NCBI GenBank assembly: GCA_963842525.1
Contig: CAWJGT010000003.1
Coordinates: forward strand, 128,001-192,000
DNA: 64,000 nucleotides
Source: an uncultured Holophagales bacterium
Lineage (GTDB): Bacteria; Acidobacteriota; Thermoanaerobaculia; Multivoradales; UBA5704
Direction: 5' to 3'
In this document: in pieces, positions 4,321 through 55,283 of the stretch
How the letters are laid out: each line of letters begins with the position of its first letter
How positions within the stretch are numbered: position 1 is the first letter of the stretch
Position numbers and translations under genes: made by a program
The notes under the pieces: generated by a model
Databases searched by the model: none
What the model saw: the letters and a program-made list of their open reading frames with translations, nothing else
Told to the model about the DNA's origin: nothing

Positions 4321-4447
4321 GCGTTGACTCTCCTAAAGCAGGGGTGTATGCTCTTCTAAGTTGAGGGGCGACAAGACGTTAGCGCCGGAGGAGCGAAGAT
4401 CGGCGAGGTGCTTAGCCGGCGCGTAGAAGCCCTAAGAAAGTCGCTCA
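4321..4447 (+). promoter_or_regulatory. Sigma70-type promoter plus attI-like module, copy A
   Basis: TTGACT(4324)-17 bp-TATGCT(4347), AAGTTGAGG, GTTAGCG(4378), CTTAGCCGGCGCGTAGAAGCCCT. Homologous to 55158-55283 on the minus strand. Confidence 0.6.
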
Positions 4448-4588
4448 CGCAGACGGTTGAACTAAACCGCTACGCGGTAGTGCCCTCCGAGCCGAATTTC
4501 GCTTTTTTTAGCCGATTTCTTCTCCAAGACGACAAACGTTTCTGAGCGGTCTACCTTTCGGGCTGTACTTTCCCGAAAGGAGGACCCC

Positions 4589-4810
4589 ATGACAGAGATG
4601 CGTCACGGATGGAAGAGGAGTTGAAGCTGCGGGGCTACAGCCCGCGCACACATGAGGCGTACATCCACTGGGAACGCCAGTTTGCCGCGCACTATCGTCG
4701 GCCGCCCGAGCAGATGGGAGCTGAAGAGGTTCGCGCCTACCTGGTCGATCTTCTCGAAAATCGTAAGCTGGCGCGGTCGTCGTTGGTTCAGGCCTTGTGC
4801 GCTTTTCGTG
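4589..4810 (+). pseudogene. N-terminal SAM-like fragment of a tyrosine recombinase (integron or IS91-associated type)
   Basis: AGGAGG RBS then MTEMR.RMEEELKLRGYSPRTHEAYIHW...RRPPEQMGAEEVRAYL...SSLVQALCAFR. Frameshift near 4605; homology stops at ~4810 with no catalytic domain. Confidence 0.75.
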
Positions 4811-4987
4811 CGAGCCGGCGTACTGTTGGTCGCTCTTTGTACTCTGGGCTTGGTCGCCGGCATCTGTGGCATCCTGTTCAATCTTCGCCCGTTGCGCGCT
4901 GCCCTTACGATTCCTCTGATCGGGACCGCTGCCAACGCAATCCTTTTGTGGTACTACGCACCGCCATTCCTGGGACTCGCCTTCTAG
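4811..4987 (+). pseudogene. C-terminal fragment of a membrane protein
   Basis: Two hydrophobic helices (GVLLVALCTLGLVAGICGILF; LTIPLIGTAANAILLWYY) in lower-GC DNA fused to the integrase fragment. Confidence 0.4.
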
Positions 4988-5031
4988 TCGAGGGGATATT
5001 GAACTCTGGTGAAGTAGCGGCGGCGAAGCTG

Positions 5032-5139
5032 CTGCCGCCCCTACCGGGGCTTGGAAATAATTTTGTCTCTATTTACCCGGGGTCGCCGCTCCTTCGTCGC
5101 TCTGACCCCGGGCTACACGCCGTGAGCCCCTCCGGGGCC
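5032..5139. repeat. Palindromic interspersed element, family 2 (second copy 30655-30761)
   Basis: GCCCCTACCGGGGC...CCCGGGGTC...GACCCCGGG...GCCCCTCCGGGGC; same layout at 30655. Confidence 0.65.
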
Positions 5140-5211
5140 TTTTCTGTTGGAGCCTATTTGGCAGGCGGAGAGACTTGGTACACTTCGACGGACTTTCGAG
5201 GACAACAGATC

Positions 5212-6111
5212 ATGACGGCTCCTGAGACTCTCGACAACCTGTTTCGCGTGGCCGTATCGGCGATGGACGCCGGTGATTTGGCCACGCTGCAACGCCTGCT
5301 GGGCGAGCATCCAAGGCTGGTGTGTGACCGCATCGACTCTCCCGGCGACTGGTTGCGCGACACGGTGGGCGACGCGCTCGACGGATTCTTCCAGCGGCCC
5401 TATCTGCTTTGGTTCGTGGCGGAAGATCCGGTCCGCAATGGCAAGCTGCCTGGGAACATCGCGGAGGTGGCTCGCGCGATCATTCAGGCGGCAGAGCGCC
5501 AGGGCGTGGACAGCTTGCAGGAACAGCTCGATTATGCCCTTCGACTGGTGGCCTGGTCATGGATCGCACGGGATTGCAGTGTGCAGACAGTGCTCATCGA
5601 TGTGCTGATCGATGCCGGTGCTTCGCCGGGTGACACGATTACGCATGACGCTCTCATCAACGGCAACTTCGCCGCGGCCGAACGTCTCGTTGAGCGCGGC
5701 GCGAATCTGACGTTGGCGACTGCCCTTTGTCTGGAACGTTGGGACGACGTGGCGCGTCTCGGGCCGACGGCAAGCGGCAGGGACAAGCAGGTGGCGCTGG
5801 TCCTCGCCGCTCTCAACGGCAAGGCAGAGGCGCTCGCGAGGCTGCTCGACCTCGGCATCGACCTGAATGCCTACAGCACCGACATCTACACGCATGCGAC
5901 GGCCCTTCATCACGCCGTGTCTTCGGGCTCGCTGGATGCGGTGAAGGTGCTCGTGGAAGCCGGGGCCGAGCTCGGCACCAAAGACCGCGCCTGGGATGGG
6001 ACGCCGTTGGAGTGGGCCGAGCATTACAGTCGCGAAGCGAAGGGAGAGGGCGCAGGGAAACTCTACCCCGAAATCGCCGTATACCTTCGTGAAAATGCTG
6101 GAGGTGCGTGA
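5212..6111 (+). CDS. Ankyrin-repeat protein
   Basis: ATG 5212 after GAGGA; motifs TALHHAVSSGSLDAVKVLVEAGA and GTPLEWA. The 4609-6111 ORF is an in-frame read-through chimera. Confidence 0.85.
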   Translation: MTAPETLDNLFRVAVSAMDAGDLATLQRLLGEHPRLVCDRIDSPGDWLRDTVGDALDGFFQRPYLLWFVAEDPVRNGKLPGNIAEVARAIIQAAERQGVDSLQEQLDYALRLVAWSWIARDCSVQTVLIDVLIDAGASPGDTITHDALINGNFAAAERLVERGANLTLATALCLERWDDVARLGPTASGRDKQVALVLAALNGKAEALARLLDLGIDLNAYSTDIYTHATALHHAVSSGSLDAVKVLVEAGAELGTKDRAWDGTPLEWAEHYSREAKGEGAGKLYPEIAVYLRENAGGA

Positions 6112-6251
6112 GGCGAAGGCGGACCAGCGGTGGGCTCGAAAGGGTAGGGAAGACCTGGCTCCGGGGGGATCGGAGAGGGGAACCACGACGCCCGTGCCCT
6201 TTGGGGCAGCGAGCACGGGCGGTTGTCAAATCCGGCGTGGTCTTTACCGAT

Positions 6252-6536
6252 TTACAACATGTCGCGATGGTCCCGAGGACCTCCAGCCCCTCCGGTGCGG
6301 GGTCGAGCCTCGTTGACATTGAGCTTCCGGCCCATCATGTCCCGCCCGTTCAAGCCGTTGATCGCCGCTTCGGCTTCCGAGTGCTCGGGCATTTCGAGGA
6401 AGCCGAAACCCTTGGACTGCCCCGTCATCTTGTCCTTGATGATGGTGCAGGACACGACCGTGCCGTACTCCTCGAAGGCTTGCTTGAGATCGTCTTCGGT
6501 GAGACGGTAGGGCAGGTTGCCGACATACAGGTTCAT
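6252..6536 (-). CDS. RRM (RNP-1) RNA-binding protein
   Basis: RNP2 LYVGNL; RNP1 KGFGFLEM. Confidence 0.95.
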   Translation of the reverse strand: MNLYVGNLPYRLTEDDLKQAFEEYGTVVSCTIIKDKMTGQSKGFGFLEMPEHSEAEAAINGLNGRDMMGRKLNVNEARPRTGGAGGPRDHRDML

Positions 6537-6678
6537 CGATTCTCTCCTTTGGGGCTTGGGTCTCGGCCCATATATCTTGCAAAAGATCTGCCCGATTTAT
6601 CGATAAACGTGAAATTATCGCGCGGAGGCCTGCGGGAGGGATGCAGGCGGCGGGGGACCGCCCCGCCGCCGTGAGGGC

Positions 6679-8901
6679 TCAGCCCATCGAGGGATAGAGC
6701 TGCCGGTAGCTGTCGGTCAGCACCAGGACGCGCTTGACGTAATCGCGGGACTCGTCGATCCCCAGGTTCTCGACGAAGTCGTCGAGCTCGGCCTCGGGCC
6801 CGGCCTCCTTCCACAGCCGCTGGATGCGGTTCGGCCCGCCGTTGTAGCCGGCGACCGCGAGCTCGACGTTGCCGTCGAACATGTTGAGGAGCTGCCGGAG
6901 ATAGGCCGTGCCCAGCTCGATGCTGAACTCCGGGTCGTAGAGCCCGTCGGACGGATAGCGGCGGTCGAGCCGGCGCGCCGTCTCACTCGCCGTGGCCGGC
7001 ATGAGCTGCATGAGCCCGCGGGCGCCGACCGGGCTGGTGGCGCGCGGATCGAAGGCGCTCTCCTGGCGGATGATGCCGGCCACCAGGGGGGCGGGCAGAT
7101 CGTTCTCCCGGGCCTGGGCCAGGATCGTCTCGCCGTATTCCAGGGGATAGTAGGCGCGCAGGACCTCGTCCGGCACGGCCGACTGCCGGGGCCCGCCGAG
7201 GGCGGGGAAGGCCTCGCGCAGCAGGGCGATCGAGGTGCGGCGGCCACCGTCGCGGCCCATGATCAGGGCCTTGAGGGCCAGCAGGTCGCGCGGGTCCGCC
7301 TTCGCCTCCACGAGCTCCATCTCGCGGCCGGCGAGCTTGTCGAGGCCGAGGTCGGTCAAGGCCTTGGCCCGCTGCAGCAGGGGATCGACCAGCCAGGAGC
7401 CGGCGGAGCGTGCCAGCTCGATGTCGGAGGACACCGGCGGCACCCCCAGCCGGGCCATGGCGCGGCGGCGGTAGAAGTCGGTGGTGTCCGAGGAGGCGAC
7501 CAGCCGGCGGTAGGCCTGGCGAGCGCCGTCTTCCCGGCCGAGCTTCTCGAGCGCCCGCGCCTGCCAGTAGAGGCCGCGCTGGGCGTCCGTGTGGCCGGGA
7601 TAGATGTCGGCGAGCTCGGTCCACCAGGTCACGGCCTTCTCGAGGTCCTGGGCGCGGTATTCCTCCCAGCCGCGCTCCCAGAGCTTGCGGGCGCCGGTCG
7701 TGTCGCGCGTGTCGATGCGGCGCAGGATGCGTAGCGCATCCATGGCGGGCTCGAACAGACCGGCCGCCAGGAAGTCCTCGTAGAGCCCGCGCAGCGCGTC
7801 GACCGTCATCTGCGTGGCTCCGAGCTCGGCGGCCTTCGCCAGGTGGCGGTGCGAGGTCACCAGCAGGGCCCGCCGCTCGGCGCCGCCCAGGCGGAGCCCG
7901 GCGCTGGCCGTGGCCATGGCGCGTTCCCACTCCAGGCCGGCCTGCTCCACGGGATCGTGGGCGTCCACCTGATCGAGCACGGTGAGGGCGTCCTGCGCGC
8001 GATCCGCCTCGGTGAGGGCGCGCGCCTTGATGAGGTGCCATTCGAGGTCCCGCTCCGCGGCAGGGACGTGATCCAGGGTGTCCAGAGCGGCGGTGAGGCG
8101 CTCCACGTCGAGGAACGAGCGCGCGCGCTGCATGACCCCGCCGTTCGAGAGCACGTGGTTCCAGTCGATCGAGCCGTCCAGGGCGCGGAAGGTGTCGGCC
8201 ACCTCCAGTGCGCCGGCGGTCATGGGGGCGTCGACCAGCAGGCGGCGGGCCGCCTCGCGGCGCACCTGGTGGTCGTTCAGCTTCTTGCCCAGCTTCCAGG
8301 CGAGGTTTTCGATCTCGACGGCCTCCTCGCCGCCGATCTTCTGCCGCCGCGCCCCGTCGATCAGCTCCAGGGTGCGCCGCTCGTCGCCCGCCTCGTAGGC
8401 GAGCTCGGCGGCCTCCAGGAAGGCCCGGGCGCGCAAGGGCGACGCGGGGTAGTCGGCGATCAGCCGGCCGAGGACGGCGGCCGCCTTCTCGTGGTGCCCG
8501 TTGTCCTGGGCGCTCTCGGCGAGGAGGTAGAGGCGCCAGTCTTCGAACGCGTTGCCGGGGGCCGCGGCCTGCGCCAGGATCTCCTCGGCGAGCGCGAGCT
8601 CGTCCAGCTCGTGGGCGTACAGGCCTTCGAGGATGCGCGCGCGCTCCGCCTCGTCCGGATACCGGCGGGCGACCTCTCCAAGGAGATGGCGCGCCTCTTG
8701 CAAATCATTGTTGCGAAGGGCCTGGGCGGCCGGGGCGTAGCGAGAGGTGAAGGACCAGGGGCTGAAGGCGATGGGTGGGGAGGGTAGCGGTGGCGTTTCC
8801 GCCTGCACCTTGTCCGGGAGGCTCAACTGGATGTAGAGGAAGGCAACGACACAGAGCAGGAGGACAGCGGCAGCAAGACGAAAGCGTGAAAAATTCACCA
8901 C
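6679..8901 (-). CDS. Soluble lytic transglycosylase (SLT domain) with TPR repeats
   Basis: IIRQESAF, GARGLMQLMPATA, AGYNGGP, ESRDYV; N-terminal membrane anchor. Confidence 0.9.
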   Translation of the reverse strand: MVNFSRFRLAAAVLLLCVVAFLYIQLSLPDKVQAETPPLPSPPIAFSPWSFTSRYAPAAQALRNNDLQEARHLLGEVARRYPDEAERARILEGLYAHELDELALAEEILAQAAAPGNAFEDWRLYLLAESAQDNGHHEKAAAVLGRLIADYPASPLRARAFLEAAELAYEAGDERRTLELIDGARRQKIGGEEAVEIENLAWKLGKKLNDHQVRREAARRLLVDAPMTAGALEVADTFRALDGSIDWNHVLSNGGVMQRARSFLDVERLTAALDTLDHVPAAERDLEWHLIKARALTEADRAQDALTVLDQVDAHDPVEQAGLEWERAMATASAGLRLGGAERRALLVTSHRHLAKAAELGATQMTVDALRGLYEDFLAAGLFEPAMDALRILRRIDTRDTTGARKLWERGWEEYRAQDLEKAVTWWTELADIYPGHTDAQRGLYWQARALEKLGREDGARQAYRRLVASSDTTDFYRRRAMARLGVPPVSSDIELARSAGSWLVDPLLQRAKALTDLGLDKLAGREMELVEAKADPRDLLALKALIMGRDGGRRTSIALLREAFPALGGPRQSAVPDEVLRAYYPLEYGETILAQARENDLPAPLVAGIIRQESAFDPRATSPVGARGLMQLMPATASETARRLDRRYPSDGLYDPEFSIELGTAYLRQLLNMFDGNVELAVAGYNGGPNRIQRLWKEAGPEAELDDFVENLGIDESRDYVKRVLVLTDSYRQLYPSMG

Positions 8902-9089
8902 ACCTCCAGTACGTCACGAGTGAGCTCTTACGACGGACGGGTTACCTTCCCCGACTCCGCCGGGTGGGTGCTTACAAAGAGCCCAACACCCATAGCTCTT
9001 CTTCCATTCCCCTTCCGGGAAATTTGTAAAAATTTCTGTCTGTTAGGATGTTGGCCCGGGCTGCTCGGGGTCCCGGGAAGGAGATAGGC

Positions 9090-9629
9090 ATGTCGATCCT
9101 GGATTGGCTGGGGCTGCGCCGCGAGGAGCCGGAGGCGGGCGCCGGCGGCGACACGGAGGGCGACACGGAAACAGTGCGGCGGATCGTGCGCGAGCTGCGG
9201 TCGCTGGAGCCGCCGCGGGCGCGCCATCTGGCCGCCTTCGCCTTCATCCTGGCGCGGGTGGCGCACGCCGACCTGGAGATCAGCGAGGAGGAGATGCGGA
9301 AGATGGAGCGCATCCTGCAGGACGTCGGCAAGCTGCCCGAGGCGCAGGCGGTGCTCGCGGTGGAGATCGCCAAGCGGCAGAGCGAGCTCTCGGGCGGCAC
9401 GGAGAATTTCCTGGTGACCCGCGAGCTCCGGGAGGTGGCCACGCGGGAGGAGTGCCGGGAGCTGCTCGACTGCCTCTTCGCCGTCTCGGCAGCCGACGAC
9501 TCGATCTCGAGCGCCGAGGAGTCGCAGATCCGCCAGATCGCCAGCGAGCTCGGCTTCAGCCTCGAAGAGTACGTGGAGATCCGCTCCGCCTGGAACGACA
9601 AGCGCGCGGTGCTCAAGGGGCTGCGGTAG
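9090..9629 (+). CDS. TerB family protein
   Basis: RVAHADLEISEEE and AVSAADDSISSAEESQIRQIASELG; AAGGAG RBS before ATG 9090. Confidence 0.8.
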   Translation: MSILDWLGLRREEPEAGAGGDTEGDTETVRRIVRELRSLEPPRARHLAAFAFILARVAHADLEISEEEMRKMERILQDVGKLPEAQAVLAVEIAKRQSELSGGTENFLVTRELREVATREECRELLDCLFAVSAADDSISSAEESQIRQIASELGFSLEEYVEIRSAWNDKRAVLKGLR

Positions 9630-9631
9630 CG

Positions 9632-9675
9632 CCCTCTCCCCCTGGCCCCTCTCCCGCGAGAGCGGGAGAGGGGGA
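9632..9675. repeat. Short PSP-type palindromic element (family 1)
   Basis: CCCCTCTCCCGC-GAGA-GCGGGAGAGGGG hairpin. Confidence 0.65.
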
Positions 9676-9761
9676 ATGCGTCTGCCGACATCCTTGCGCC
9701 CCTGCCTCGTCGTCTGCGACAATGCCGCCGTTTCCTCAGCCGATGCCGAAGGGGAGGTGCG

Positions 9762-10760
9762 GTGGCGAAGCACGATACCAGCTACAAGGCGCTGTTCTCT
9801 TATCCCGAAATGGTGGCCGACCTGATTCGCGGCTTCGTCCGCGAGGAGTGGGTTGCCGAGCTCGACTTCTCCACCCTGGAGAAGGTTCCGGCGAGCTTCG
9901 TCACGCCGGATATGAGTCCCCGCGAGAGTGACGGCCTCTGGCGGCTGCGCTGGGGACGCAAGCGCTGGCTCTACGTCTACATCCTCCTGGAGTTCCAGTC
10001 CAAGGTCGATCCTTTCATGGCGCTGCGCGTGATGGTCTACCTGGGCCTGCTCTATCAACACCTGATCAGGGAGCACCAGCTCACAGCCTCCGGCAAGCTT
10101 CCCGCGGTCCTGCCGCTGGTTCTCTATAATGGGTTGAAGCCTTGGCGGGCCGCCCTGGACATCGCCGAGCTGATCGAAGATGTTCCGGGCGGTCTGGAGC
10201 GCTATCGGCCGCAGCTCCGCTATTGTCTTCTGGACGAAGGGCGGATTGCGACGGCCGAGCTGGGGTCGCTGCGGAACCTGACGGCGGCGCTGTTCCGGTT
10301 GGAGAAGAGCCGTGGCCCTGAGGAGATCGAAGGGATCCTGGTCGCCCTGATCGAGTGGCTCCAGGAGCCGGAGCTGGCCGAACTGCGGCGCGCGTTTGCC
10401 ACCTGGCTGCGGGATGTTCTGCTCCCCGCCCGGGTGCCTGGAGTGGAGATTCCGCAGATGGCGGATCTCGAGGAGGTCAAGACGATGCTGGCGGAACGAG
10501 TCAAGGAGTGGACCCGCGAGTGGCAGCAGGAGGGCTTCGAGAAGGGGCTCGAGAAGGGGCTCGAAAAGGGGCTTGAGAAGGGGCGTGCGGAAGGGCTTGA
10601 GAAGGGGCGCGCCGTTCTGATCCGCCAATTGGAGAGGCGCTTCGGGCCTCTGCCTCAAGAAGCCCGGCAGTGCATCGAAGCGCTCGATCTTGAGGCGATC
10701 GTGGAGCTGAGCGCCGCGGTTGCGACGGCCCCGTCGCTTGCGGCTTTAGGGTTGAGCTGA
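9762..10760 (+). CDS. Rpn family (YhgA-like) recombination-promoting nuclease with C-terminal DUF4351-like domain
   Basis: HDTSYKALF, RESDGLW, YILLEFQS, PLVLYNG and GLEK repeats. Confidence 0.9.
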   Translation: MAKHDTSYKALFSYPEMVADLIRGFVREEWVAELDFSTLEKVPASFVTPDMSPRESDGLWRLRWGRKRWLYVYILLEFQSKVDPFMALRVMVYLGLLYQHLIREHQLTASGKLPAVLPLVLYNGLKPWRAALDIAELIEDVPGGLERYRPQLRYCLLDEGRIATAELGSLRNLTAALFRLEKSRGPEEIEGILVALIEWLQEPELAELRRAFATWLRDVLLPARVPGVEIPQMADLEEVKTMLAERVKEWTREWQQEGFEKGLEKGLEKGLEKGRAEGLEKGRAVLIRQLERRFGPLPQEARQCIEALDLEAIVELSAAVATAPSLAALGLS

Positions 10761-10969
10761 CGAGGGCTAGGCCGGTCGATCTCGTTCGCTCGCAACGATT
10801 TCGAACACCGGGCTGAGGCCGAAGCCTTCGGCTGGTCGCCCCAGATTCCGGCCTCGCTTGGGTCGAGACGTAAGATAAGATACGGTCTTGCGGCCGGTTG
10901 GGGCGTGGTGCCTGCCTCTCGCAGTAGGTCCCCGTTTTGCAGAGCAACTCCCGAGAGAGGTAGTAGACG

Positions 10970-12415
10970 ATGCGTGATCGTGATCGCGGCAAAGCCAAAG
11001 CCGCTGGCTGTTTCCTCCGTACCCTGCTGGCCCTGGCACTCCTGGTGGTGGCCGTGGCGGCGTTCGCCACCTTCTACACGGGGGCCACGCCGGAGGTGAG
11101 CGTCCAGTCCAAGCTGCCCGGCATCGGCCGGCGGACGCCGATCCACATCCGGATCGAGGACCCGCAGCGGGTCTCCAAGGTCAAGGTCGAGGTGGTTCAG
11201 GGTGCGGACGTCAAGCCGGTCCAGGAGAAGGAGCTCCAGCCGGGGTCGTCGTTCGCCTTCGGCGGCGGCGAGCCGGTCGACATGACCGTCGAGGTCGGCC
11301 GCGAGACGGTCCAGGGGCTGCGCTCGGGTGAGGCCACGGTGCGGGTGACGGCGGAGCGGGCGGGGACCTGGCTGCGGCGGCCGGCGCCGGTCGTGGCCGA
11401 GGTCAAGCTCCCAGTCCGCCTGGCGCCGCCGACCCTGCAGATCCAGTCGAATTTCCACTACGTGAACCAGGGCGGCAGCGAGGTGGTGGTCTACCGGGTT
11501 GGCGAGGGGGCGATCCGCGACGGCGTCCAGTCCGGCGACTGGTGGTTCCCGGGCTTCCCCTTCCCCGGCAGCAACGACAAGCAGCAGCGCTTCGCCTTCT
11601 TCGCCGTGCCGTACGACATGGGCGATGCATCGCGCATCCGGCTGGTCGCGGTCGACGAGGTGGGCAACCGGGCCGAGGCCGGGTTCATCGACAAGTTCAC
11701 CCCGCGGCCACTGAAGACCGACACGATCGATGTGAACGACGCCTTCATGAACAAGGTCGTGCCCGAGATCATGTCGCAATCGTCCGAGGTTTCGGACCAA
11801 GGAAACCTCCTGGCCAACTACCTGGAGATCAATCGCAACCTGCGAAAGAAGAACGCGCAGACGCTCAAGGATTTGGGGCAGAAGTCGGCCCGTCAGTTCC
11901 TTTGGAGCCAGCCCTTCGAGCCGATGATGAATGCCGCGATCACCGCCGCCTTCGCCGACCGCCGGACCTATACCTACAACGGCAAGAACGTCGACCAGCA
12001 GGACCACCTCGGCTTCGACATGGCCTCGGTCGAGCGCGACGCCATCAAGGCCTCGAACAACGGCCGGGTGGTGCTGGCGCGCTTCTTCGGGATCTATGGC
12101 AACGCCGTGGTGATCGACCACGGCTATGGCATCCAGAGCCTCTACGGGCACCTCTCCTCAATCGGGGTGCGCGAAGGGCAGGAGGTCCAGCGCGGCCAGG
12201 AGCTGGGCCGCTCCGGCCAGACCGGCCTCGCGGCCGGCGACCACCTGCACTTCACCATGCTCCTCCAGGGCCTGGCCGTGACGCCGGTCGAGTGGTGGGA
12301 CCCGCACTGGATCCAGGACCGCGTCGCGCGGAAGCTGGGGCCGACGCTGCCGTACAACGCCAAGGCGGCAGCGCCGGCGGCGTCCGCTACATCACCAGCG
12401 CGTACCCGACCTTGA
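10970..12415 (+). CDS. M23 family metallopeptidase
   Basis: HLGFD, YGNAVVIDHG, YGHL, HLHF; N-terminal membrane anchor. Confidence 0.9.
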   Translation: MRDRDRGKAKAAGCFLRTLLALALLVVAVAAFATFYTGATPEVSVQSKLPGIGRRTPIHIRIEDPQRVSKVKVEVVQGADVKPVQEKELQPGSSFAFGGGEPVDMTVEVGRETVQGLRSGEATVRVTAERAGTWLRRPAPVVAEVKLPVRLAPPTLQIQSNFHYVNQGGSEVVVYRVGEGAIRDGVQSGDWWFPGFPFPGSNDKQQRFAFFAVPYDMGDASRIRLVAVDEVGNRAEAGFIDKFTPRPLKTDTIDVNDAFMNKVVPEIMSQSSEVSDQGNLLANYLEINRNLRKKNAQTLKDLGQKSARQFLWSQPFEPMMNAAITAAFADRRTYTYNGKNVDQQDHLGFDMASVERDAIKASNNGRVVLARFFGIYGNAVVIDHGYGIQSLYGHLSSIGVREGQEVQRGQELGRSGQTGLAAGDHLHFTMLLQGLAVTPVEWWDPHWIQDRVARKLGPTLPYNAKAAAPAASATSPARTRP

Positions 12416-14753: not shown

Positions 14754-14778
14754 AGAGGGGGGGCTGGGTTACAACGGG

Positions 14779-14931
14779 CCCTCACCCCCCTGGCCCCCCT
14801 CTCCCATCCGCACTCCCTGCCCCCGGGAGAGGGGGGAAGAAGGCAGAGAAGCCATCTCATTGTCGGATCACCACGACTCCCCTCTCCCGGTGGATCGGGA
14901 GTGCGGATGGGAGAGGGGCCGGGGGTGAGGG
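14779..14931. repeat. PSP-type long palindromic element (family 1)
   Basis: CCCTCACCCC...CTCTCCC at the left end, GGGAGAGGGGCCGGGGGTGAGGG at the right end. Confidence 0.8.
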
Positions 14932-14932
14932 C

Positions 14933-17321: not shown

Positions 17322-17366
17322 GCTCCCCTGGCATCCTCCCGCCGATCGCGCTACATTCAGACTTGT

Positions 17367-47007: not shown

Positions 47008-47022
47008 ACCGGAGGCCGTTGC

Positions 47023-47373
47023 ATGGACGATTCCTATCAAGTGCTCGGGCTGAAGCCGGGTGCCGCCAGGGAAGAGATCGATCGCGCCTACCGCACCCTG
47101 GTCCGCCGCTATCCGCCGGAGCTCAATCCCGAGCGTTTCGCCCTCATCCATGACGCCTACGACCGGCTCCGCTCCTTCGAGCGCACGATGGAAGAGGTAC
47201 GCAAAATCCCCGAAGCCGGGCTGGACTCGCTGTTCCCGGTGCCCCGGATGAGCCTGCGGCCTTTCGCTCCCCTGGACGCGCCTCTGCAGCCGCAGGACCT
47301 GGAGCCGCTCCTGCGTCCGTGGCGTTGTATCCTGCTGGCACGCCTGCTCCGCGAGCACCTCGCAGAGCGCTGA
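47023..47373 (+). CDS. J-domain-like protein lacking HPD
   Basis: YQVLGLKPGAAREEIDRAYRTLVRRYPPELNPERFALIHDAYDRL. Confidence 0.85.
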   Translation: MDDSYQVLGLKPGAAREEIDRAYRTLVRRYPPELNPERFALIHDAYDRLRSFERTMEEVRKIPEAGLDSLFPVPRMSLRPFAPLDAPLQPQDLEPLLRPWRCILLARLLREHLAER

Positions 47374-47654
47374 GCCGCAGGTTCGGCCCTGGGAGCGCCG
47401 GCGTCTCGCCGGCTCTACTTCCCCGTAGCCGCCTCCTGGACCCCCAGGGCGCCGCCCGAGCCTCCCCTCCCTTCAGGCCTCTCCTCAACGGCCAAGAGCA
47501 GCCGCCTCAATAGGGTCCTCAGGCTCGTTCGGAGGTAACTCGGGCCACGCGCACCCTGGGAAAAACAGCCCTGGCTTGGTCGACCGGTTGGCGGCCGGCC
47601 GCGCGGCGGAGTAGAGTCTTGCCTATAGGCGGATCGACTCCGAGCGAGCTCCCG

Positions 47655-48233
47655 ATGTCCTCTCCTGACGAAGTCACCCGGCTGTTGCGGGCCTGGCGAA
47701 GCGGCGACGCGGGCGCTCTGGAGGAGCTTGCGCCGCTGGTCTATGCCGAGCTTCACCGCCTGGCCGAGAGCCGCATCCGGCATGAGCGGGCCGACCATAC
47801 CCTGCAGGCCACGGCCCTGGTGCACGAGGCCTATCTCCGGCTGGCGGGCGCCGACGCTCCCGACTGGCAGGACCGGGCCCACTTCTTCGCCGTCGCCGCG
47901 CGGATGATGCGGCGCATCCTGGTCGATCATGCCCGCGCCCGCGGCGGCCCCAAACGCGGCGGCTCCGTGCGCAAGGTCTCACTGGAGGAAGCCGCCGTGC
48001 TCACGGACGAACGCACGGAGGACATTCTCGAGCTGGACGAGGCCCTCGGCCGGCTGGCCGCTTTCGATCCCCGCCAGCACCAGGTGGTGGAGCTGCGGTT
48101 CTTCGGCGGCCTGTCGGTCGAGGAGACGGCGGAGGTGCTCGGCCTGTCTCCGATCACGGTGAAGCGCGACTGGCGGGTGGCGCGGGCCTGGCTGTATGCG
48201 GAGCTTGCGGGAGCCCGGGGAGCAGAGGCGTGA
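47655..48233 (+). CDS. ECF sigma factor (kinase-associated, TIGR02999-like)
   Basis: VYAELHRLA, HTLQATALVHEAYLRL, ILVDHAR, VELRFFGGLS, TVKRDW. Confidence 0.92.
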   Translation: MSSPDEVTRLLRAWRSGDAGALEELAPLVYAELHRLAESRIRHERADHTLQATALVHEAYLRLAGADAPDWQDRAHFFAVAARMMRRILVDHARARGGPKRGGSVRKVSLEEAAVLTDERTEDILELDEALGRLAAFDPRQHQVVELRFFGGLSVEETAEVLGLSPITVKRDWRVARAWLYAELAGARGAEA

Positions 48234-50872
48234 CGCCCGAGCGCTGGCGGCGGATCAACGAGCTGTTCGAGCAGGAAGCCGCGCTCGATCCGGCCGGGCG
48301 GGCCGCCCGCCTGGAGGCGGCCAGCGGCGGCGATCCGGAGCTTCCGGCCGAGGTCGAAAGGCTTCTCGCCGCGGACCTTCAGGCCGGCAGCTTCCTGGAG
48401 AACCTGGTCCAGTGGACCCCTGAGGAGCCATCGGCCGCCGGGGGAGACCTGCCGGCGGACCGGCAGATCGGGCCCTATCGGATCGAGCGCGAGATCGGAC
48501 AGGGCGGGATGGGCACCGTCTATCTGGCGGCACGCGCTGACGGCCTGTTCGAAAAAGAGGTGGCGGTGAAGGTCGTGCGCCGGGGCTTCGACACCGCCGA
48601 CGCCCTGCGCCGCTTCGAGCTGGAGCAACGGATCCTCGCCCGGCTGGAGCACCCCGGGATCGCCCGGCTCTATGACGCGGGCACCACCGCGGAGGGCCGG
48701 CCCTATGTTGTGATGGAGCACGTCGAGGGGCTGCCGATCCACCGCTGGTGCGAGCAGCACCGGCTCGCCGTGGCCGAGCGGCTGAAGCTCTTCCTGGAGG
48801 TCTGCGCGGCGGTCCACTACGCGCACCAGAACCTGGTGGCGCACCGTGACCTCAAGCCGAGCAATATCCTGGTCGATGCCGCCGGCCGGCCGCGGCTCCT
48901 CGACTTCGGCATCGCCAAGCTGCTCAGCCCGGAGGGTGAGGTTGCCGCCGACCTGACCCATGCGGCGCAGCGGCCCATGACCCCCGGCTACGCGAGCCCG
49001 GAGCAGATCCGCGGCGAGCCGGTGACCACGGCAAGCGACGTCTACTCCCTGGGCGTCCTCCTCTACGAGCTGCTCGCCGGCCGGCAGCCCTTCGCCCTCG
49101 CCGGCCTGTCCCCGCGCGAGATGGAACGGATCGTCTCCGAGACCGAGCCGCAGCCGCCCAGCCGGGCAGCCGGCAGCCCGGAGCTGCTTGCCGGCCGGCC
49201 TGAAGGGGCCGAACGGCTGCGGAGGTTACTGGCGGGGGACCTCGACCGCATCGTCCTCAAGGCCATGCACAAGGAGCCCGGCCGGCGCTATGCAACGGTC
49301 GATCAGCTCGCGGACGACGTCCGCCGCCATCTCACCGGCCTGCCGGTGCTCGCGCGCGGAGACTCCTTCTGGTACCGGGCCGGCAAGCTGGTGCGGCGCC
49401 ACAAGCTGGCGGCGGCCCTGGTCCTGGTCGTGACGACTGCCGGTCTGGGGACCGCGGTGCTCGCCGTGGAGAGGGCGCGCGCCCTGGAGCGAGCTACGGC
49501 CGCTCTCGTCCGCGCCGATCGCGAAGCGGCCAAGGCGCGCGAGGCGACCGATCTCCTCGTCGAGCTGTTCAAGCTGTCGGACCGCCGCGAAACCGCCGGC
49601 GAGACGGTCACCGCCCGCGAGGTCCTGCGCCAGGGGACCCAGCGCGTCGAGGCGACGATCGCGAAACAGCCCGAGATCGCGGGCGAGCTGCTCGGCACGA
49701 TCGGCCGGGTCTACCTCAACCTCGGGCTGCCGCGGGAGGCGGTGCCGGTCCTTCAGCGGGCGTTGGCCGCACACCGGCGCGCCCGCGGCCCGCGCCATCC
49801 GGACGTTGCCGCCGCTCTCGACGATCTGGCGCGGGCCCTGCGCGACGAAGGGAAATACGCGGCGGCCGAGCCCCTGGCCCGGCATGCATTGGCGCTGCGC
49901 CGCGATCTGCTGGGAGAGGACCACCCCGACGTGGCCGCGAGCCTCGGCAATCTGGGGGTGCTGCTCTTCCGGAGCGGCGAGTATCCGGCCGCCGAGGCGG
50001 CGCTCACCGAGGCGCTGGCCCTCCGCCGCCGCCTCCCCCTGAACGAACGGGTCCTGCTTGGCGACAGCCTGACCGATCTGGCCTTTCTGTACCAGGCGAA
50101 GGCGGAGTACGGCCGCGCCGAGTCCCTTTTTCGCGAGGCGGTGGAGGTCTATCGCCAGCAGCTCGGGCCGGAGCATCCGACTGTGGCGAGCGGCCTCAAC
50201 AACCTCGCCATGACGCTGTACCGCAAGGGCGATACCGCGGCGGCCGAGCCTCTTCTCCGCGAGGCGTTGCGGCTCCACCGCCGTGATCTGGGGGACGACC
50301 ACCCGGCGGTCGCCGCCTCCCTGGAGAACCTCTCCGGCATGCTCGCGGAGCGCGGCGACTTCACAGCGGCCGAGCCGCTCGCCCGCGAGGCCCTCGCTCT
50401 GCACCGGAAAACGTTGGGTGACCGGCACCCCACTGTGGCGGGAAGCATCAACAGCCTCGCCGTCCAGATCCACTCGCGCGGCGACCTCGCAGCCGCCGAG
50501 CGGCTGTTCCGCGAGGTCCTGGCGTTGCGCCGCGAGATCCTCCCCCCGGAGCATCCGGACATCGCCTCTTCGCTCCTGGGGCTCGGAGCCGTCCTGTCCG
50601 ACCGGGGCGAGGAGAAGGCCGCCGAGCCGCTCCTGCGCGAGGCGCTCGCCATCCGCCGCCGCGTGCTGCCGCCCGGCCACTGGCGCATCGCGACCGTCGA
50701 GAGCGAGCTCGGAGGCTGCCTCGCCCGCCAGCGCCGGTGGCAGGAAGCGAGGCCGCTGCTGGTCGACAGCTACTCCCGGCTGCGCCAGGCGTTCGGCGCC
50801 GAGAACCAGCACACGCGGCGGGCCTTCGCCCATCTCGCGCGGCTCACCGCTTCTTCCCCCCCAGGGGGTTGA
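48230..50872 (+). CDS. Membrane Ser/Thr protein kinase with TPR repeats
   Basis: GQGGMGTV, HRDLKPSN, DFG, TPGYASPEQ, TM helix, kinesin-light-chain-like TPRs. Confidence 0.95.
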   Translation: MTPERWRRINELFEQEAALDPAGRAARLEAASGGDPELPAEVERLLAADLQAGSFLENLVQWTPEEPSAAGGDLPADRQIGPYRIEREIGQGGMGTVYLAARADGLFEKEVAVKVVRRGFDTADALRRFELEQRILARLEHPGIARLYDAGTTAEGRPYVVMEHVEGLPIHRWCEQHRLAVAERLKLFLEVCAAVHYAHQNLVAHRDLKPSNILVDAAGRPRLLDFGIAKLLSPEGEVAADLTHAAQRPMTPGYASPEQIRGEPVTTASDVYSLGVLLYELLAGRQPFALAGLSPREMERIVSETEPQPPSRAAGSPELLAGRPEGAERLRRLLAGDLDRIVLKAMHKEPGRRYATVDQLADDVRRHLTGLPVLARGDSFWYRAGKLVRRHKLAAALVLVVTTAGLGTAVLAVERARALERATAALVRADREAAKAREATDLLVELFKLSDRRETAGETVTAREVLRQGTQRVEATIAKQPEIAGELLGTIGRVYLNLGLPREAVPVLQRALAAHRRARGPRHPDVAAALDDLARALRDEGKYAAAEPLARHALALRRDLLGEDHPDVAASLGNLGVLLFRSGEYPAAEAALTEALALRRRLPLNERVLLGDSLTDLAFLYQAKAEYGRAESLFREAVEVYRQQLGPEHPTVASGLNNLAMTLYRKGDTAAAEPLLREALRLHRRDLGDDHPAVAASLENLSGMLAERGDFTAAEPLAREALALHRKTLGDRHPTVAGSINSLAVQIHSRGDLAAAERLFREVLALRREILPPEHPDIASSLLGLGAVLSDRGEEKAAEPLLREALAIRRRVLPPGHWRIATVESELGGCLARQRRWQEARPLLVDSYSRLRQAFGAENQHTRRAFAHLARLTASSPPGG

Positions 50873-50879
50873 GGGGTTC

Positions 50880-51560
50880 TTATTGCAGGCCGCCCCACCT
50901 CTCGATCAGCACCTGGACATCCGACAGCCCGACCAAGCCGTCCTGATCGAGATCGAAGGGGCATTTCTGGTTCAGGTGGGCCGCGACGATCTGCTGGTCT
51001 TCCAGGTCCACCGTGCCGTTGCCATCGAAGTCGACGTTGGGATAGCCGGTGCCCGCCGGCCCGAAGAAGCAGGCCACGAGAGCGACGTCGTGCAACGTGA
51101 CGACGCCGCTGTTGTCGACGTCGAGGCCCGGATCGCGGGCGTCCCACTTGCCGTTCAGATTGGCGTCGATGAAACAGTTGCCATAGCCGGCGAGCAGGGC
51201 CACCAAGTCGCGGCAGTCGATGACCCCGTCGCCGGACAGATCGGCGCCGGCTTCCGCGCACGAGCCCCAGTGCCCGAGCACGAAGGCGCGGTCGAAGCAC
51301 CCCACGACGCCGTCATGGTTCACGTCGGCGGCCATGCCCGGGGCTGCGGAGCCCCAGTCTTTGACGACCAGCCCCAGATCCGCGGCATCGACGACGCCGT
51401 CTCCATTCACGTCCGCGGAGAGGACACAGTGTCCGCCCGGGCAGTCGGGCCCGGTGAGCTTGAGGGTACAAACGGTCGGTGCCGCCAGCGCGCAGGTGGG
51501 TGCGAAGAGGACGATCAGGACCGGGAGGGCGGCAGGGAACATTTGGATCTTGGGTGTCAT
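50880..51560 (-). CDS. Secreted dockerin/EF-hand-like repeat protein
   Basis: Signal peptide; about seven DxNGDGxV-like repeats with Cys. Confidence 0.8.
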   Translation of the reverse strand: MTPKIQMFPAALPVLIVLFAPTCALAAPTVCTLKLTGPDCPGGHCVLSADVNGDGVVDAADLGLVVKDWGSAAPGMAADVNHDGVVGCFDRAFVLGHWGSCAEAGADLSGDGVIDCRDLVALLAGYGNCFIDANLNGKWDARDPGLDVDNSGVVTLHDVALVACFFGPAGTGYPNVDFDGNGTVDLEDQQIVAAHLNQKCPFDLDQDGLVGLSDVQVLIERWGGLQ

Positions 51561-51669
51561 CGCGTCTCCTTTCCTACAAGGGTGCCTGGCAGATGGCCGA
51601 GCGCGCCCCCACTCTCATCAGCGGAGAACGCTGGCGAGAGGGATCATGGGGGTGCTAGAATCGCTGCAT

Positions 51670-52879
51670 GATGGCACGAGCGTTGGCCGCCACCCTGCAG
51701 ATCACCTTCCTGGCTCTCCTCGCCGGGCCGGCTGGCGCTGCGCCGCCTCCGGTGCCACGAGGCGCCGAGATCCGTGTCAACACCGACACGCAGGTCTCTC
51801 ACTTCAACCCCTCCGTCGCCGTCTTCCCGGACAGCCGCTTCGTGGTCGTCTGGTCGGCGACCTCCGGAGCGCGGGCGCGGTTTTTCGACAGCCAGGGAAG
51901 ACCGACGAGCGGCGAGCGCCGCCTCGCGGTCAGCGGGATCGTCGATCAGGTCGTCGCGGACCGTGACGGCAGCTTCCTCGTGGTCTGGAGTGGGGGCACG
52001 GGCCCCGCGCTTGGCGTCTACGTACGCCGCTTCAACCGAGACGGCATGCCGCGGGGCAAGGCGATCCGCGCCAACGCGCCCAGCACATCCAGCCGGTTTG
52101 ACGCCGTGGCCGCCATCGGACCGGATGGCCGCTTCGCAGTCGCCTGGAAAGCGCAGGTCGACGTGTCCGAGGAGAGCGGCTATACCAACGCCGTGGCGCG
52201 GATCTTCACCGCCAAGGGGACCCCCGTCACGCCGGAGATCCTCCTTCTCGAAGGCGATGCCGCCGGCGCTGCCGGAGACGACGCCATCGACGCCTATCCG
52301 ACCAGCCTGGCCCTGACACCCGACGGCACCCTGGCGGCGCTGGTCCAGTCCTTTGAGTCGAGCGGCTGTCTCAATAGCTACCTGATACGGGTGCCTTCGG
52401 CGGGTGGGTCCCTCAGCTCGCAAGCTCTGGGCTCGATCCTCTGCGCGCCGGACTATTTCGGCTCGTCTCTGGCCATGGGACTGGATGGCAGCCTGGTCGC
52501 CACCTGGAGCGACTTCTCGATTCGGGCCCAGCGATTCTCTCCGGACGGAACCCCCCGGGGCCAGTACTTTGGGGTCAGCACCGGGCAAGATGGTCAGACC
52601 GACGCGGCGGTCGCTCTGCAGGCCGGCGGGAGCTTCGTCGTCGCCTGGGCCGAGCCGTTCGGGCGGGACGGGGACGGCAGCGGCATCTTCGGCCGCGCCT
52701 TTGCTCCCAATGGAGCACCGCGCACGCAGGACTTCCGGATCAACGTCACGACGGCCGGCAACCAGCACGATCCGGCGATCGCCGCGGCCCGTCAAGGTCC
52801 TGTCCTGGTCGTCTGGACCCAACTGACTCCGGATGGCCGGAGCGACGTCTTCGCGCGCGTGCTCTCGGCGAAGCCATAG
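51670..52879 (+). CDS. Secreted repeat protein (beta-propeller-like)
   Basis: Signal peptide; repeated P.VA...DG.F.VVW...RRF..DG.P.G units. Confidence 0.8.
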
Positions 52880-52975
52880 CCGAGCGGCGCCGCACCCACC
52901 GCGCGGGCTCGCCGCGCAGCCTCACAGCATGCACGAAGGATCCGGCCAGCTATGCCGCGCAAGCCGATCCGCCGT

Positions 52976-53356
52976 GGATAACGATATCCGGCGCAGATAA
53001 GCTTATCCGAGCCAGTGTAAGCTTATCCGCCGATCAGATAAGCTTATCCGCCGTGGATAACACTATCCGGCGCGGATAAGCTTATCCACCGCGGATAACA
53101 CTATCTGGCGCAGATAAGCTTATCCGTGGCAGATAAGCTTATCCGGCGTGGATAACGGTATCCGGCGCAGATAAGCTTATCCGCCACGGATAACACTATC
53201 TGGCGTGGATAAGCTTATCTGGGCCAGTGTAAGCTTATCTGGCGCAGATAAGCTTATCTGCCGTGGATAACACTATCCGGCGCGAACTAAGCTTATCCGT
53301 GGCAGATACATTTATCCGACATGGATTACGGTATCCGGCGCGGATGGCGTGATCCG
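52976..53356. repeat. Tandem array, ~20 x 19 bp: palindrome RGATAAGCTTATCY plus 5-bp GC-rich spacer
   Basis: Units counted directly; almost no ORF-track coverage. Confidence 0.92.
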
Positions 53357-53474
53357 GGCCGGCTCAAGCAGATCTGTCGCAGATATCAGCATCCCACTCA
53401 TCTCGCCAGCCGGCGATTTAGCTCCTCTTTACAGCTACAGGAGTTTGACGCGAGAGGAGGCGTGGAAAGGGCCC

Positions 53475-53520
53475 GTGCACGCCGATCCCTGCGGCAGGGC
53501 GAGTGCAGCGAGGGTTAGGC
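53475..53520 (-). mobile_element. Partial attC-like site
   Basis: GCCTAAC (RYYYAAC) 25 bp after the stop codon, followed by a hairpin; no matching GTT R' box found. Confidence 0.45.
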
Positions 53521-53545
53521 GGCCAGTCACGAGCATAGGAGAAGG

Positions 53546-53902
53546 TCAGTCGATAGCTTCGAGGATGGCGTCCATCGGCAGACGGACAGCAGTAAGCAGC
53601 CAGGCGCAAAGTGCGAACGCACAAAGAATAGTCCCGCCAGACACCAGGACAGCGTAGAGAAGGGATGGTCGAGACCTTTTGAGGATGTCGATTGCAAGGA
53701 TGGCGAAGGGTGCCAACAGGAGCCACCACCACTTGTAGGTTGCGACGAAGAACCGGGTGAGCGTAGGGAGTGGCGCGGCGAGCCCGGTTAGAAGTTTGTC
53801 AAAGTCGGGGGCATACCAATATGTGAAACCGAGAACGAAGAGAAGAGACAGGAATGCGGCCGCGAGAAGGGCCGAGGCGACGATCCTGTGTGGCTGGCTC
53901 AT
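53546..53902 (-). CDS. Small 3-TM hypothetical protein (cassette-like)
   Basis: Hydrophobic segments around LPTLTRF; lower GC. Confidence 0.7.
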   Translation of the reverse strand: MSQPHRIVASALLAAAFLSLLFVLGFTYWYAPDFDKLLTGLAAPLPTLTRFFVATYKWWWLLLAPFAILAIDILKRSRPSLLYAVLVSGGTILCAFALCAWLLTAVRLPMDAILEAID

Positions 53903-53959
53903 AGCAGTGCGCTCTCGGTCCGCAATAACGTCACGTGGGGGCACGATTGATCCCTGGCC

Positions 53960-54033
53960 GCCTTACGCGCAGATGGTGAGCGGCGGGAACCACGCTGTTT
54001 GCGGTTTCCGTCCGCTCGACCGTGGGGTTATGC
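53960..54033 (-). mobile_element. attC-like integron cassette recombination site
   Basis: R'' GCATAAC 5 bp after the TIR stop. Stem GTGAGCGG-CGGGAACC pairs with GGTTTCCG-T-CCGCTC-G-AC with bulged T and G. R' is degenerate (GTAAGGC). Confidence 0.7.
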
Positions 54034-54038
54034 GTCCC

Positions 54039-55034
54039 CTACTTGGTTGGCTCGTTCGGTTCTTCGGATTCATCGTCTACTGCACCCCTCAGCCGGCGCC
54101 CCTCGTACCTGTGCAGCAAGTGATCGAGCATCATTGGAAGCTCCATCATCATCATGTGCGCTTCTTTCGAGGAACCGCCGAACTCTTCCATAAAAGGGCC
54201 ACGGCTAACATATTTGACAACCCGCCGCAGGCGCTCGATCGCTCTCTGCGCTGCCTTGGGATCGCCGTCCTTGACATCACGATAAGCCTCCATGATGATC
54301 TCATAGAGCCAAGGATAGTCGTCTCGCAGAAGGCCACCGAACATGAGCAATGCAACAGGATCCTCTCCGTCTTCAGACATCATATGTGCCATTTCGTCGA
54401 ACATCATAGGATGAAACCTTCGACGGCGGCGTGATCGCGGAGCCTGTTCGGAAACTATACCCTCAAGATCGCGAAAACGCGAGTCGAGGCCCCGCACACT
54501 AGTAACAAGCTCTTCAAGGATCTCGTGATGAGGCCGCATATGTCTTTCAGTCGGGGCTTCCTTCGGAATGCCAGCCAACCGCTTTTCAAGCTCCGGCCAC
54601 AAAGCGGCGAATAACTGTTTAACGCGGTCGTCGGGAATCGCTTGGTCCGTGGCATGGTTTATCGACTGAACCACCTCGCCCAGTCCGCTCCTTTCGACTT
54701 TTTTGGCTTGAAACTGCGCAAGTGGTCCCGTAATGTCACTGAACTCAAGATTGAAGAGAAGAGGAATGACCTTGGCACCCTGCATCGACTTCGCAAGGGC
54801 TCCGGCCTCAAACAACACCCAAGGCGAACCGACGTTCTCCGGAGTCACACATATTACTCCAAAGTTCGATGCTTCCAACTCTTTTGCCACAGCTTGTGCC
54901 CAGCGGTCTCCGGCAGACACATCCGCCTCAGAGAGCCAAGGCTCCACATAATGGAGTACGAGCGGGAACCACTCCCGTAATGCCTGCGCGAGCGCTTGGC
55001 TACGCTCTCCGCTCCAACTAATGAATAGCTTCAT
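54039..55034 (-). CDS. TIR-domain protein with unknown C-terminal domain
   Basis: MKLFISWSGERS, GDRW, SPWVLFEAGAL, GPLAQFQ; lower GC than the flanks. Confidence 0.9.
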   Translation of the reverse strand: MKLFISWSGERSQALAQALREWFPLVLHYVEPWLSEADVSAGDRWAQAVAKELEASNFGVICVTPENVGSPWVLFEAGALAKSMQGAKVIPLLFNLEFSDITGPLAQFQAKKVERSGLGEVVQSINHATDQAIPDDRVKQLFAALWPELEKRLAGIPKEAPTERHMRPHHEILEELVTSVRGLDSRFRDLEGIVSEQAPRSRRRRRFHPMMFDEMAHMMSEDGEDPVALLMFGGLLRDDYPWLYEIIMEAYRDVKDGDPKAAQRAIERLRRVVKYVSRGPFMEEFGGSSKEAHMMMMELPMMLDHLLHRYEGRRLRGAVDDESEEPNEPTK

Positions 55035-55064
55035 GTAGGTTCCTCGCTTAACCGCATCGGTTCA

Positions 55065-55193
55065 CGCCGCATAATAAGCGTCTATCCGGGGTCCTCCCAC
55101 AACACAGCTCCGGAGTCCACCACCTTCTCAGGGGAGGACCGCGGATAGACGCACGAGGAGCGACAGCCTTCAGGGCTTCTACGCGCCGCATAA
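55065..55193. repeat. Long hairpin flanked by 10-bp direct repeats CGCCGCATAA
   Basis: Direct repeats at 55065 and 55184; inverted repeat CGTCTATCCGGGGTCCTCCC / GGGAGGACCGCGGATAGACG. Confidence 0.75.
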
Positions 55194-55283
55194 GAGTCCC
55201 TGGCTCGTCGCGTCCTTGCCCGTAACTTGTTCTCGCGCCTCAACTTGAAGAAGGATACGCCTCCGCCTTGAGAGAGTCAACGC
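55158..55283 (-). promoter_or_regulatory. Sigma70-type promoter plus attI-like module, copy B
   Basis: TTGACT-17 bp-TATCCT, AAGTTGAGG, GTTACGG, CTTATGCGGCGCGTAGAAGCCCT; homologous to 4321-4447. Confidence 0.6.

Follow-up and report, generated by a model that had tools for sequence, protein, structure and literature searches.

Two Related Segments in a 64-kb Window

This report concerns a window of 64,000 nucleotides (nt) from an uncultured Holophagales bacterium (assembly GCA_963842525.1, contig CAWJGT010000003.1, positions 128,001 to 192,000 of the forward strand), the whole stretch that was analyzed, and two segments within it, which are likely to be orphan integron platforms, i.e., a cassette promoter (Pc) followed by an attI-type recombination site, with no adjacent integrase gene, and of which the genome holds twelve full copies. 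The genome (G000; 9.95 Mb) is represented by a 96% complete assembly, the contigs of which are designated C1, C3, C9 and so on, and the two segments are referred to as copy A (C3:132321) and copy B (C3:183285). They lie 51 kb apart in opposite orientation and can be aligned with each other as the original prediction had stated, copy B being 74% identical to copy A over 126 nt (E 3.4e-10 in a BLAST search of the whole genome). In a consensus scan both carry a promoter with an exact 17-nt spacer, TTGACT-17-TATGCT in copy A and TTGACT-17-TATCCT in copy B, and the regions around A and B contain one and two promoter-like sites per 900 nt, respectively, compared with 0.1 and 0.2 in shuffled sequences. 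The blocks AAGTTGAGG, GTTA, CTTAnnCGGCGCGTAGAAGCCCT, and GTCGCTC are likewise present, most of them invariant across the 14 copies of the core alignment. Downstream of each copy the G+C fraction decreases from ~0.68-0.72 to 0.50-0.60.

Copy A lies on the plus strand and is represented by its core (4321..4458; nhmmer E 4.8e-33), comprising a predicted Pc-like promoter of the sigma-70 type that reads into the cassettes (4324..4352), a leader of ~105 nt and an attI-like end; because likeness to the other copies begins at 4321, the upstream half is absent here. A GTT (4456..4458) forms the border between the conserved platform and the inserted DNA and would be the site of crossover. It is followed by the 5' stump of an IS91-type insertion sequence (IS) (4459..4805; 348 nt, 98.6% identical), which contains the element's left end (GAACTAAACCGC) as well as the initial codons of its IntI-like recombinase, and within which positions 4-71 of the TIGR02249 profile are matched. 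Fused behind the stump is an open frame (4807..6108, plus strand) with ankyrin repeats near its end (Ank_2, E 1.4e-13), probably a fragment of an unrelated gene that was left by a deletion. Hence the integrase fragment that had been proposed for copy A can be retained as the stump of the IS, while a membrane-gene fragment does not suffice as the sole description of the remainder.

Copy B lies on the minus strand, and its order of hairpin, TIR_2 gene, attC-like site, small hydrophobic open reading frame (ORF) and lone R''-type box is as predicted. Its upstream half (55284..55473, outer limit approximate) harbors the boxes ACGCAGAAGACGCCGG, ATAGAGATAGGTC, TATCCGTC...GAGACGG, and GCCTTATCGCC, which are common to most other copies, and is followed by the core (55164..55283; nhmmer E 2.3e-33), with a predicted promoter of the sigma-70 type at 55252..55280 and with the final ~15 nt, including the GTT, deleted. 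The adjoining 89 nt (55075..55163) correspond with 93% identity to the 3' terminus of the IS91-type element, and their long hairpin, GTCTATCCGCGGTCCTCCCC...GGGAGGACCCCGGATAGAC, is, judged by this likeness, a remnant of an element that formerly occupied the crossover of copy B. The first cassette gene (54039..55034) encodes a 331-amino-acid (aa) protein with a TIR domain (Pfam TIR_2, E 5.3e-11) and is followed by an imperfect palindrome of the attC type (53923..54033; GCATAAC...GTTATTG, -41.4 kcal/mol in the fold scan), the first ~60 nt of which are 85-94% like C9:1076729, C19:419239, C19:418210, and C3:664418. The second cassette ORF (53546..53944) is small and hydrophobic (132 aa as listed) and matches no family; behind it, a lone R''-type box, GCCTAAC (53514..53520), was recognized by eye and has no partner ("half attC"). 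Among five genomes of the same genus, the flank of copy B was too diverged for synteny to be traced, with a single match at 64%.

A Dispersed Family of Twelve Platforms

Searching the genome with a profile of the module (nhmmer, E<0.01) yielded twelve full and six partial copies, in addition to four weak matches, so that A and B belong to a dispersed family heading varied genes, rather than being a pair with invariant ones. Besides copies A and B, the full copies are located at C1:555 and C1:1251, which form a tandem pair, and at C3:356524, C3:1117367, C6:254158, C9:136521, C9:1899871, C10:22696, C25:236270, and C25:539886. The fragments comprise promoter halves (C19:391783 and C9:68341) as well as promoterless pieces that retain the 3' 50 nt only (C9:164067, C9:1905508, and C34:210482). 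Identity between platforms ranges from 57 to 89% among four copies compared. The tandem pair (C1:1-1400, L164) is built of a 696-nt unit (96% identical); the unit also holds an ORF on the opposite strand for a small secreted protein, and the contig begins ~7 nt from the expected border.

In a family set of 92 genomes, consisting of the genome under study and 91 others, a full copy was found in only two of the latter (G036 and G037, one each), and in G026 and G027 the module is represented by its promoter part alone. When 185,579 species genomes were searched for AAGTTGAGG-N48-60-CGTAGAAGCC, 72 loci were returned, approximately the number estimated from chance, and the sole true copy among them is found in a metagenome-assembled genome of the Thermoanaerobaculia (L123), with a score equal to that of the copy in G037.

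The anatomy of the platform can be described from the core alignment and from an alignment of the upstream half, which comprises ten copies (eight of this genome and those of G036 and G037). Upstream conservation extends towards approximately -190 in nine of the ten, with G037 as the exception, and includes the boxes GCATATCGCGACGTAGAAGAC, ATAGAGATAGG, and CTTATCCG...GAGACG, then GCCTTATCG directly before the -35 box, which is itself invariant in all 14 aligned copies. Past the -10 box, CTAAGTTGAGG, GTTA, CTTATNCGGCGCGTAGAAGCCC, and GTCGCT follow in this order; CTTATNCG and GCGTAGAAGCC are named boxes of the platform, the latter being one of the invariant blocks of the leader. The ~125 bp of the original prediction thus stand as a core, but the module is longer, both by its upstream part and by an end at GTT ~140 nt past its start. 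In 11 of the 12 copies conservation ends sharply at ...GGCGGTT (GCGTT in two), the end of copy B having been lost, and the -10 box is separated from this GTT by ~106 nt. The subsequent letters depend on the copy (ATGC, ATTC, ATAC, GGGC, AGGC, CGGC, AGCT, or GAAC), and in most copies GTT and the letters that follow it form the integron core GTTRRRY.

Cassettes and attC Sites Behind the Platforms

The downstream genes are variable, and many of them are followed by attC sites. The first ORFs begin 20-30 nt past the GTT. Among 20 ORFs that were scanned against Pfam, TIR_2 was found in four (including the gene at 55034-54039 in the window), together with AbiJ_NTD4, DUF2971, AHSA1, glyoxalase, an HTH/TPR protein, and a group II intron reverse transcriptase, and the remaining ORFs matched no Pfam family, bar one sub-threshold match to DUF2484. 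Between the ORFs lie imperfect palindromes of 46-110 nt of the attC type, e.g., GGCCTCAACCGGACGGCACCGC...GCGGCGCCGCGCGGTTAGGCC. A hidden Markov model (HMM) built from the genome's own attC sites gave 30 matches in the genome, and six platforms have one on the same strand at a distance of 1.2-4.1 kb; a separate fold-based scan added C6:254160 (-60 kcal/mol) and copy B (54033-53923), which brings the copies followed by attC to eight of twelve. Two or more attC sites on the same strand with no integrase, the criterion for clusters of attC sites lacking an integron integrase (CALIN), are found at C3:1118552 and 1118999 and at C9:137990 and 138952, and copy B has one attC-like site and the lone R'' box. 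No whole cassette is common to a platform and an attC site elsewhere in the genome, the likeness being confined to attC-type stretches.

The group II intron reverse transcriptase (RVT_1 and GIIM; L170:7036-8364) lies in the array behind the platform at C3:356526. A 315-nt stretch near this intron recurs with 98-99% identity beside attC matches at C25:512272 and C11:179875, a distribution that suggests an attC-targeting intron.

An IS91-Type Element at the Probable Crossover

Three platforms of the genome carry a 2547-bp IS91-type element directly after their GTT. It encodes a 284-aa tyrosine recombinase (Phage_int_SAM_4 and Phage_integrase), followed by an IS91-type transposase (Zn_Tnp_IS91 and Y2_Tnp). 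The left junction reads GGCGGTT|GAACTAAACC (GGCGTT|GAAC in one copy) and the right junctions read ...GCTTACACGTT|GGGC, |GTGC, and |GGCC, so that the element has borders like those of a cassette integrated at G|TT. Insertion at the GTT of a platform is thus seen in three intact cases and one truncated case, and as copy A keeps the first 348 nt of the element and copy B its last 89 nt, all five copies or remnants in the genome are located at platform ends. The three IS copies are 99.92-100% identical, whereas their host platforms share 58-89%; near-identical elements in diverged platforms indicate that the insertions are recent and independent. The 3' end of the IS consists of GCTCAAC, a long hairpin and GTTGRRC, and folds in an attC-like manner over 97 nt (-55 to -59 kcal/mol).

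Contigs from the soil metagenome run X1 provided one more junction, in which the end of a C1-type platform is joined to the left end of the IS, and a further IS-bearing unit therefore probably lies in the assembly gap of C1. Neither an empty site nor a circle junction was found in the contigs of runs X1-X3, and the joints seen in X2 and X3, which are of low likeness and lie inside the transposase gene, probably stem from other organisms.

The IS-borne recombinase scores 238.9 bits on TIGR02249, for which the curated cut-off used in calling IntI is 265 bits, and leaves profile positions 178-235 unmatched. It is 42% identical to the IntI of relatives, without their 26- and 10-residue insertions, and retains the catalytic R, K, HxxR, H, and Y. 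It is accordingly not an IntI, since the extra domain is absent from the alignment and the score is under the cut-off. A relative of the IS on a plasmid has similar ends, ATT|GAACTAACCCGC ... GGGTTAGCTCAA|TT, and lies outside any integron.

Intact Integrons and Platforms in Related Genomes

IntI above the curated cut-off was identified in 24 of the 92 family genomes. In the relatives, intI is followed on the same strand by ~350 nt of spacer, by a TTGACN-17-TAnnnT promoter, and by the cassettes; the spacer carries CTTAYNCG/CGNRTAAG and GCATATC boxes, and CTAAGTT is often found right after the promoter. In G055 the attI crossover is fixed by a tandemly duplicated cassette, at CCATAG-GTT|GAGCAG, 103 nt past the -10 box, and the identical cassette start also follows an attC site ending in ...CTAAGAC-GTT.

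Relatives of the IS are found at the same position, as such a promoter and a ...GGTT|GAAC junction are found at six of seven full-length left ends, and the distance from the -10 box to GTT is 101-128 nt at these six loci and L054. A co-oriented IntI C-terminus lies upstream at three of the seven loci (E 1e-92, 4e-35, and 4e-8). No IntI was found within 1.5 kb at the other four, three of which have the promoter, which suggests that the family includes further genomes with orphan platforms. In one genome of the same genus (G090:C5; L188/L060), an intI that looks intact is followed, 4 nt beyond its stop codon, by the start of a relative of the IS, at ...TGAGCGC|TTGAACAAAACCGC, an insertion point that differs from the promoter-distal GTT.

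When 7-mers shared between the platforms and the spacers from intI to Pc of the relatives were filtered, GCGTAGA alone passed, and the evidence from the boxes that both have in common (CTTAYNCG, GCATATC, and CGTAGAAG) is suggestive, not statistical. Inverted pairs of CTTAYNCG ... CGNRTAAG, ~20 nt apart, are present in L042 (in the first 90 nt after the intI stop codon), L046, L052, and L053, and L042 also carries GGCGCGTAGAAGCC, the most conserved block of the module; these pairs and GGCGCGTAGAAGCC may represent shared protein-binding boxes.

Integrase Genes in the Genome

No integrase gene adjoins a platform in any of the twelve copies, in agreement with the original prediction, which had further proposed that the platforms are served by an integrase in trans. 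This latter part finds no support in an intact IntI, the genome holding one broken IntI and two small fragments. The true intI exists in pieces only (C9:1070914-1071159 and C9:1073687-1073905), with an IS21-like insertion between them and three attC sites behind; the two C-terminal fragments, both small, are located at C9:849785 and C19:416790. The canonical integrase being dead, the sole intact candidate for an integron-like recombinase in this genome is the IS-borne enzyme, with the proviso that an intI may lie outside a 96% complete assembly. The stand-alone family of Pc/attI sites as such is retained, with its promoter, its attI-type behavior, twelve copies, and variable attC cassettes.

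The remains of the classical integron extend over approximately C9:1070914-1077564 (L041, C9:1066001-1080000), the two pieces corresponding to IntI residues 125-206 and 183-252. After the intI pieces, a TTGACG-17-TAGAGT promoter with CTAAGTCGAAG is found that is weakly module-like (E 0.27).

Probable Orphan attI Sites and Alternative Explanations

The case for orphan attI sites is based on layout, on geometry and on the behavior of the IS. In the working model, the outward Pc, itself predicted and presumed strong, would lead through the ~105-nt leader to an attI-type site with the crossover at its 3' GTT, and would transcribe the first cassette or cassettes, i.e., promoterless genes for TIR, AbiJ, and other small proteins bounded by attC hairpins. 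Circular cassettes would enter at G|TT by means of an integron-type tyrosine recombinase made elsewhere, and the platforms were, or are, presumably served by such an enzyme.

Several observations weigh against this model. Neither intI nor a remnant of it was found within 2.5 kb upstream of any of the twelve copies with a profile of 11 IntI sequences from relatives (best E 2.9), tblastn with the IntI of relatives gave no match near any copy, and the assembly contains no intact IntI, the best matches to TIGR02249 being the IS-borne recombinases. At the intI loci of relatives, nhmmer with core and upstream profiles gave nothing below E 0.2, so that the likeness to attI regions is one of layout and behavior and not of sequence homology. 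Downstream of four of the twelve copies (both on C1, that on C10, and A), no recognizable attC was detected by the HMM or the fold scan. The distance from the GCCCTAA box to GTT (~25 nt) does not fit the spacing of the L and R boxes in attI1. Finally, IS91-type elements have a short target preference of their own, hence the IS insertions alone are no proof of a tyrosine-recombinase crossover.

A further-reaching proposal, which we regard as doubtful, is that the IS91-type element acts as a self-integrating "integrase cassette" with the orphan platforms as its docking sites. Its HUH rolling-circle transposase would release a single-stranded circle, in which GCTCAAC at the right end, together with the 3' hairpin and with GTTGAAC at the left end, would fold into a mimic of attC, and the IntI-like recombinase, which lacks the domain regarded as defining integron integrases, would join this mimic to the G|TT of a platform. 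Being carried from platform to platform, the enzyme would serve all of them in trans, and the whole would amount to a distributed integron with a mobile integrase.

Among the readings that dispense with recombination, the strongest, albeit improbable, is that the module is a portable promoter and leader that became dispersed, has no recombination role, and is found near cassettes for historical reasons. It would account for the promoter being the best conserved part, as seen in the invariant -35 box, for the existence of promoter-half fragments both here (C19:391783 and C9:68341) and in G026 and G027, for a genome without an intact integrase, and for the lack of detectable homology to intI-linked attI regions. 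It does not account for the sharp end at GTT in 11 of 12 copies, for the three fragments that consist of the 3' 50 nt without a promoter, or for the attC arrays behind eight of the twelve copies, nor for an IS with integron-like ends that entered at this very position independently in several diverged copies, and in the intact integrons of relatives as well.

It is very unlikely that the ~100 nt past the promoter constitute a structured regulatory RNA that controls the defense-type genes. In line with this, the promoter precedes conserved untranslated sequence in which GCGTAGAAGCC and other blocks are invariant, and single copies fold with a closing stem, GAGGAGCGAC/GTCGCTCCTC, but the RNAalifold consensus reaches only -3.8 kcal/mol, and the best stem, with 61% of cells paired and no compensatory changes, is no better than shuffles (175/500). 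Furthermore, Rfam gave no match at gathering scores in the whole window, and an E-value scan of 4200-4700 around copy A returned chance-level matches only, none of them on the module; the downstream genes, moreover, are mutually unrelated. Scarcely tenable is the reading of the module as the terminal part of an IS91-like element, for while five of the twelve copies adjoin the element or a remnant, seven show none of its sequence, identity amounts to 99.9-100% among the IS copies compared with 58-89% among the adjoining modules, a sign of very different rates of evolution, the 2547 bp of the element include inverted ends of its own (GTTGAACTAAACCGC and GCGGTTTCGCTCAAC), and the plasmid relative has similar ends and no module, so that the module is the target of the element rather than its end.

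Relation to Known Integron Systems

Orphan platforms share features with several described systems. In the sections of Cury et al. (2016; PMC4889954) that bear on the matter, CALINs are clusters of attC sites without an integrase, the attI sequence is said to be unknown for most integrons, and "inverted integrase" chromosomal integrons, e.g., in some Treponema, have an integrase co-oriented with the cassettes. As in the latter, so far as they are described there, promoter, attI, and attC cassettes lie on one strand here, with a GTT crossover and small genes of accessory or defense type; unlike in them, the platform stands alone, twelve times, with no intI or remnant, and shows no detectable sequence relationship to the platforms that adjoin intI in relatives. 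An integrase-less array with its own attI has already been published (PMC9892861), namely in the Shewanella prophage M16-3, where, according to the relevant part of that paper, a CALIN with its own attI lies beside a complete integron and an identical attI heads both. The cassette arrays without a neighboring integrase resemble those of CALINs and M16-3, but in contrast to the latter, in which, by the same account, one element carries an intact IntI together with two attI sites, the genome studied here has twelve diverged copies with promoters of their own and no intact IntI, and its sites are targeted by an IS.

IntI-like recombinases without the IntI insertion in IS91 and IS3 elements are described in a passage by Smyshlyaev et al. 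(10.1101/542381), and the IS91 elements of that passage have the same gene pair as the present one, recombinase without the IntI insertion included; what sets the element of this genome apart from that description is that it inserts exactly at attI crossovers, with ends like an integron core. Group IIC introns, for their part, have been linked with integrons (in the portion of PMC7923331 concerned with them).

Mobile elements that target the attC sites of integrons comprise the IS1111-attC elements and the group IIC-attC introns. The IS91-type element is like these in being a parasitic element specific for an integron recombination site, and unlike them in that it targets an attI-type crossover. 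A literature search of papers without their supplements found none on attI-targeting IS91-type elements or on multi-copy orphan attI sites.

In the usual picture an integron has one integrase, one attI, and one array, and CALINs are treated as debris. Twelve diverged copies of Pc and attI, each heading a small array of defense type, would mean that at least some CALINs are not loose pieces but organized units that can, by prediction, be expressed. That an IS91-type element has recently entered attI crossovers with precision, in orphan platforms and in the intact integrons of at least seven related genomes, may provide a natural marker of attI in a poorly studied soil lineage and points to a link between rolling-circle transposons and integron recombination. 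If the IS recombinase acts on attI, the extra domain of IntI would be dispensable for at least one integron-type reaction.

Repeats Near the Platforms

In the platform at C25:539773 (L167), a miniature inverted-repeat transposable element (MITE) of ~400 nt with the inverted ends AGCGCCTA(A)CAAA(A)CC occupies -418 to -25 and interrupts the CTTAT box that directly precedes the -35 box, with CTTA repeated at both junctions. The motif GTTAGGCG just upstream of this module was considered as a cassette end and rejected, as it is the inverted end of the MITE. In the window, just past the cassettes of copy B (52967-53345), ~17-20 tandem units of 19 nt are formed from GATAAGCTTATC and GTTATCCACG, which resemble DnaA boxes. 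The genome contains 17 such arrays, three of which are no more than 3 kb away from an attC or platform match, compared with 0.38 expected (P ~0.005). Copy A is adjoined upstream by an array of tandem repeats (4004-4272) with a period of 42 nt, made up of 21-nt half units, and the platform on C10 is followed by another array with a 42-nt period and a different sequence (L169:2798-3108), which recurs in numerous places on C19, C11, C16, C25, C5, and C1. At 5022-5151 of the window lies a repeat of ~115-130 nt that looks like a palindromic MITE; many contigs carry it, in more than 20 copies altogether, and copies of opposite orientation are often adjacent.

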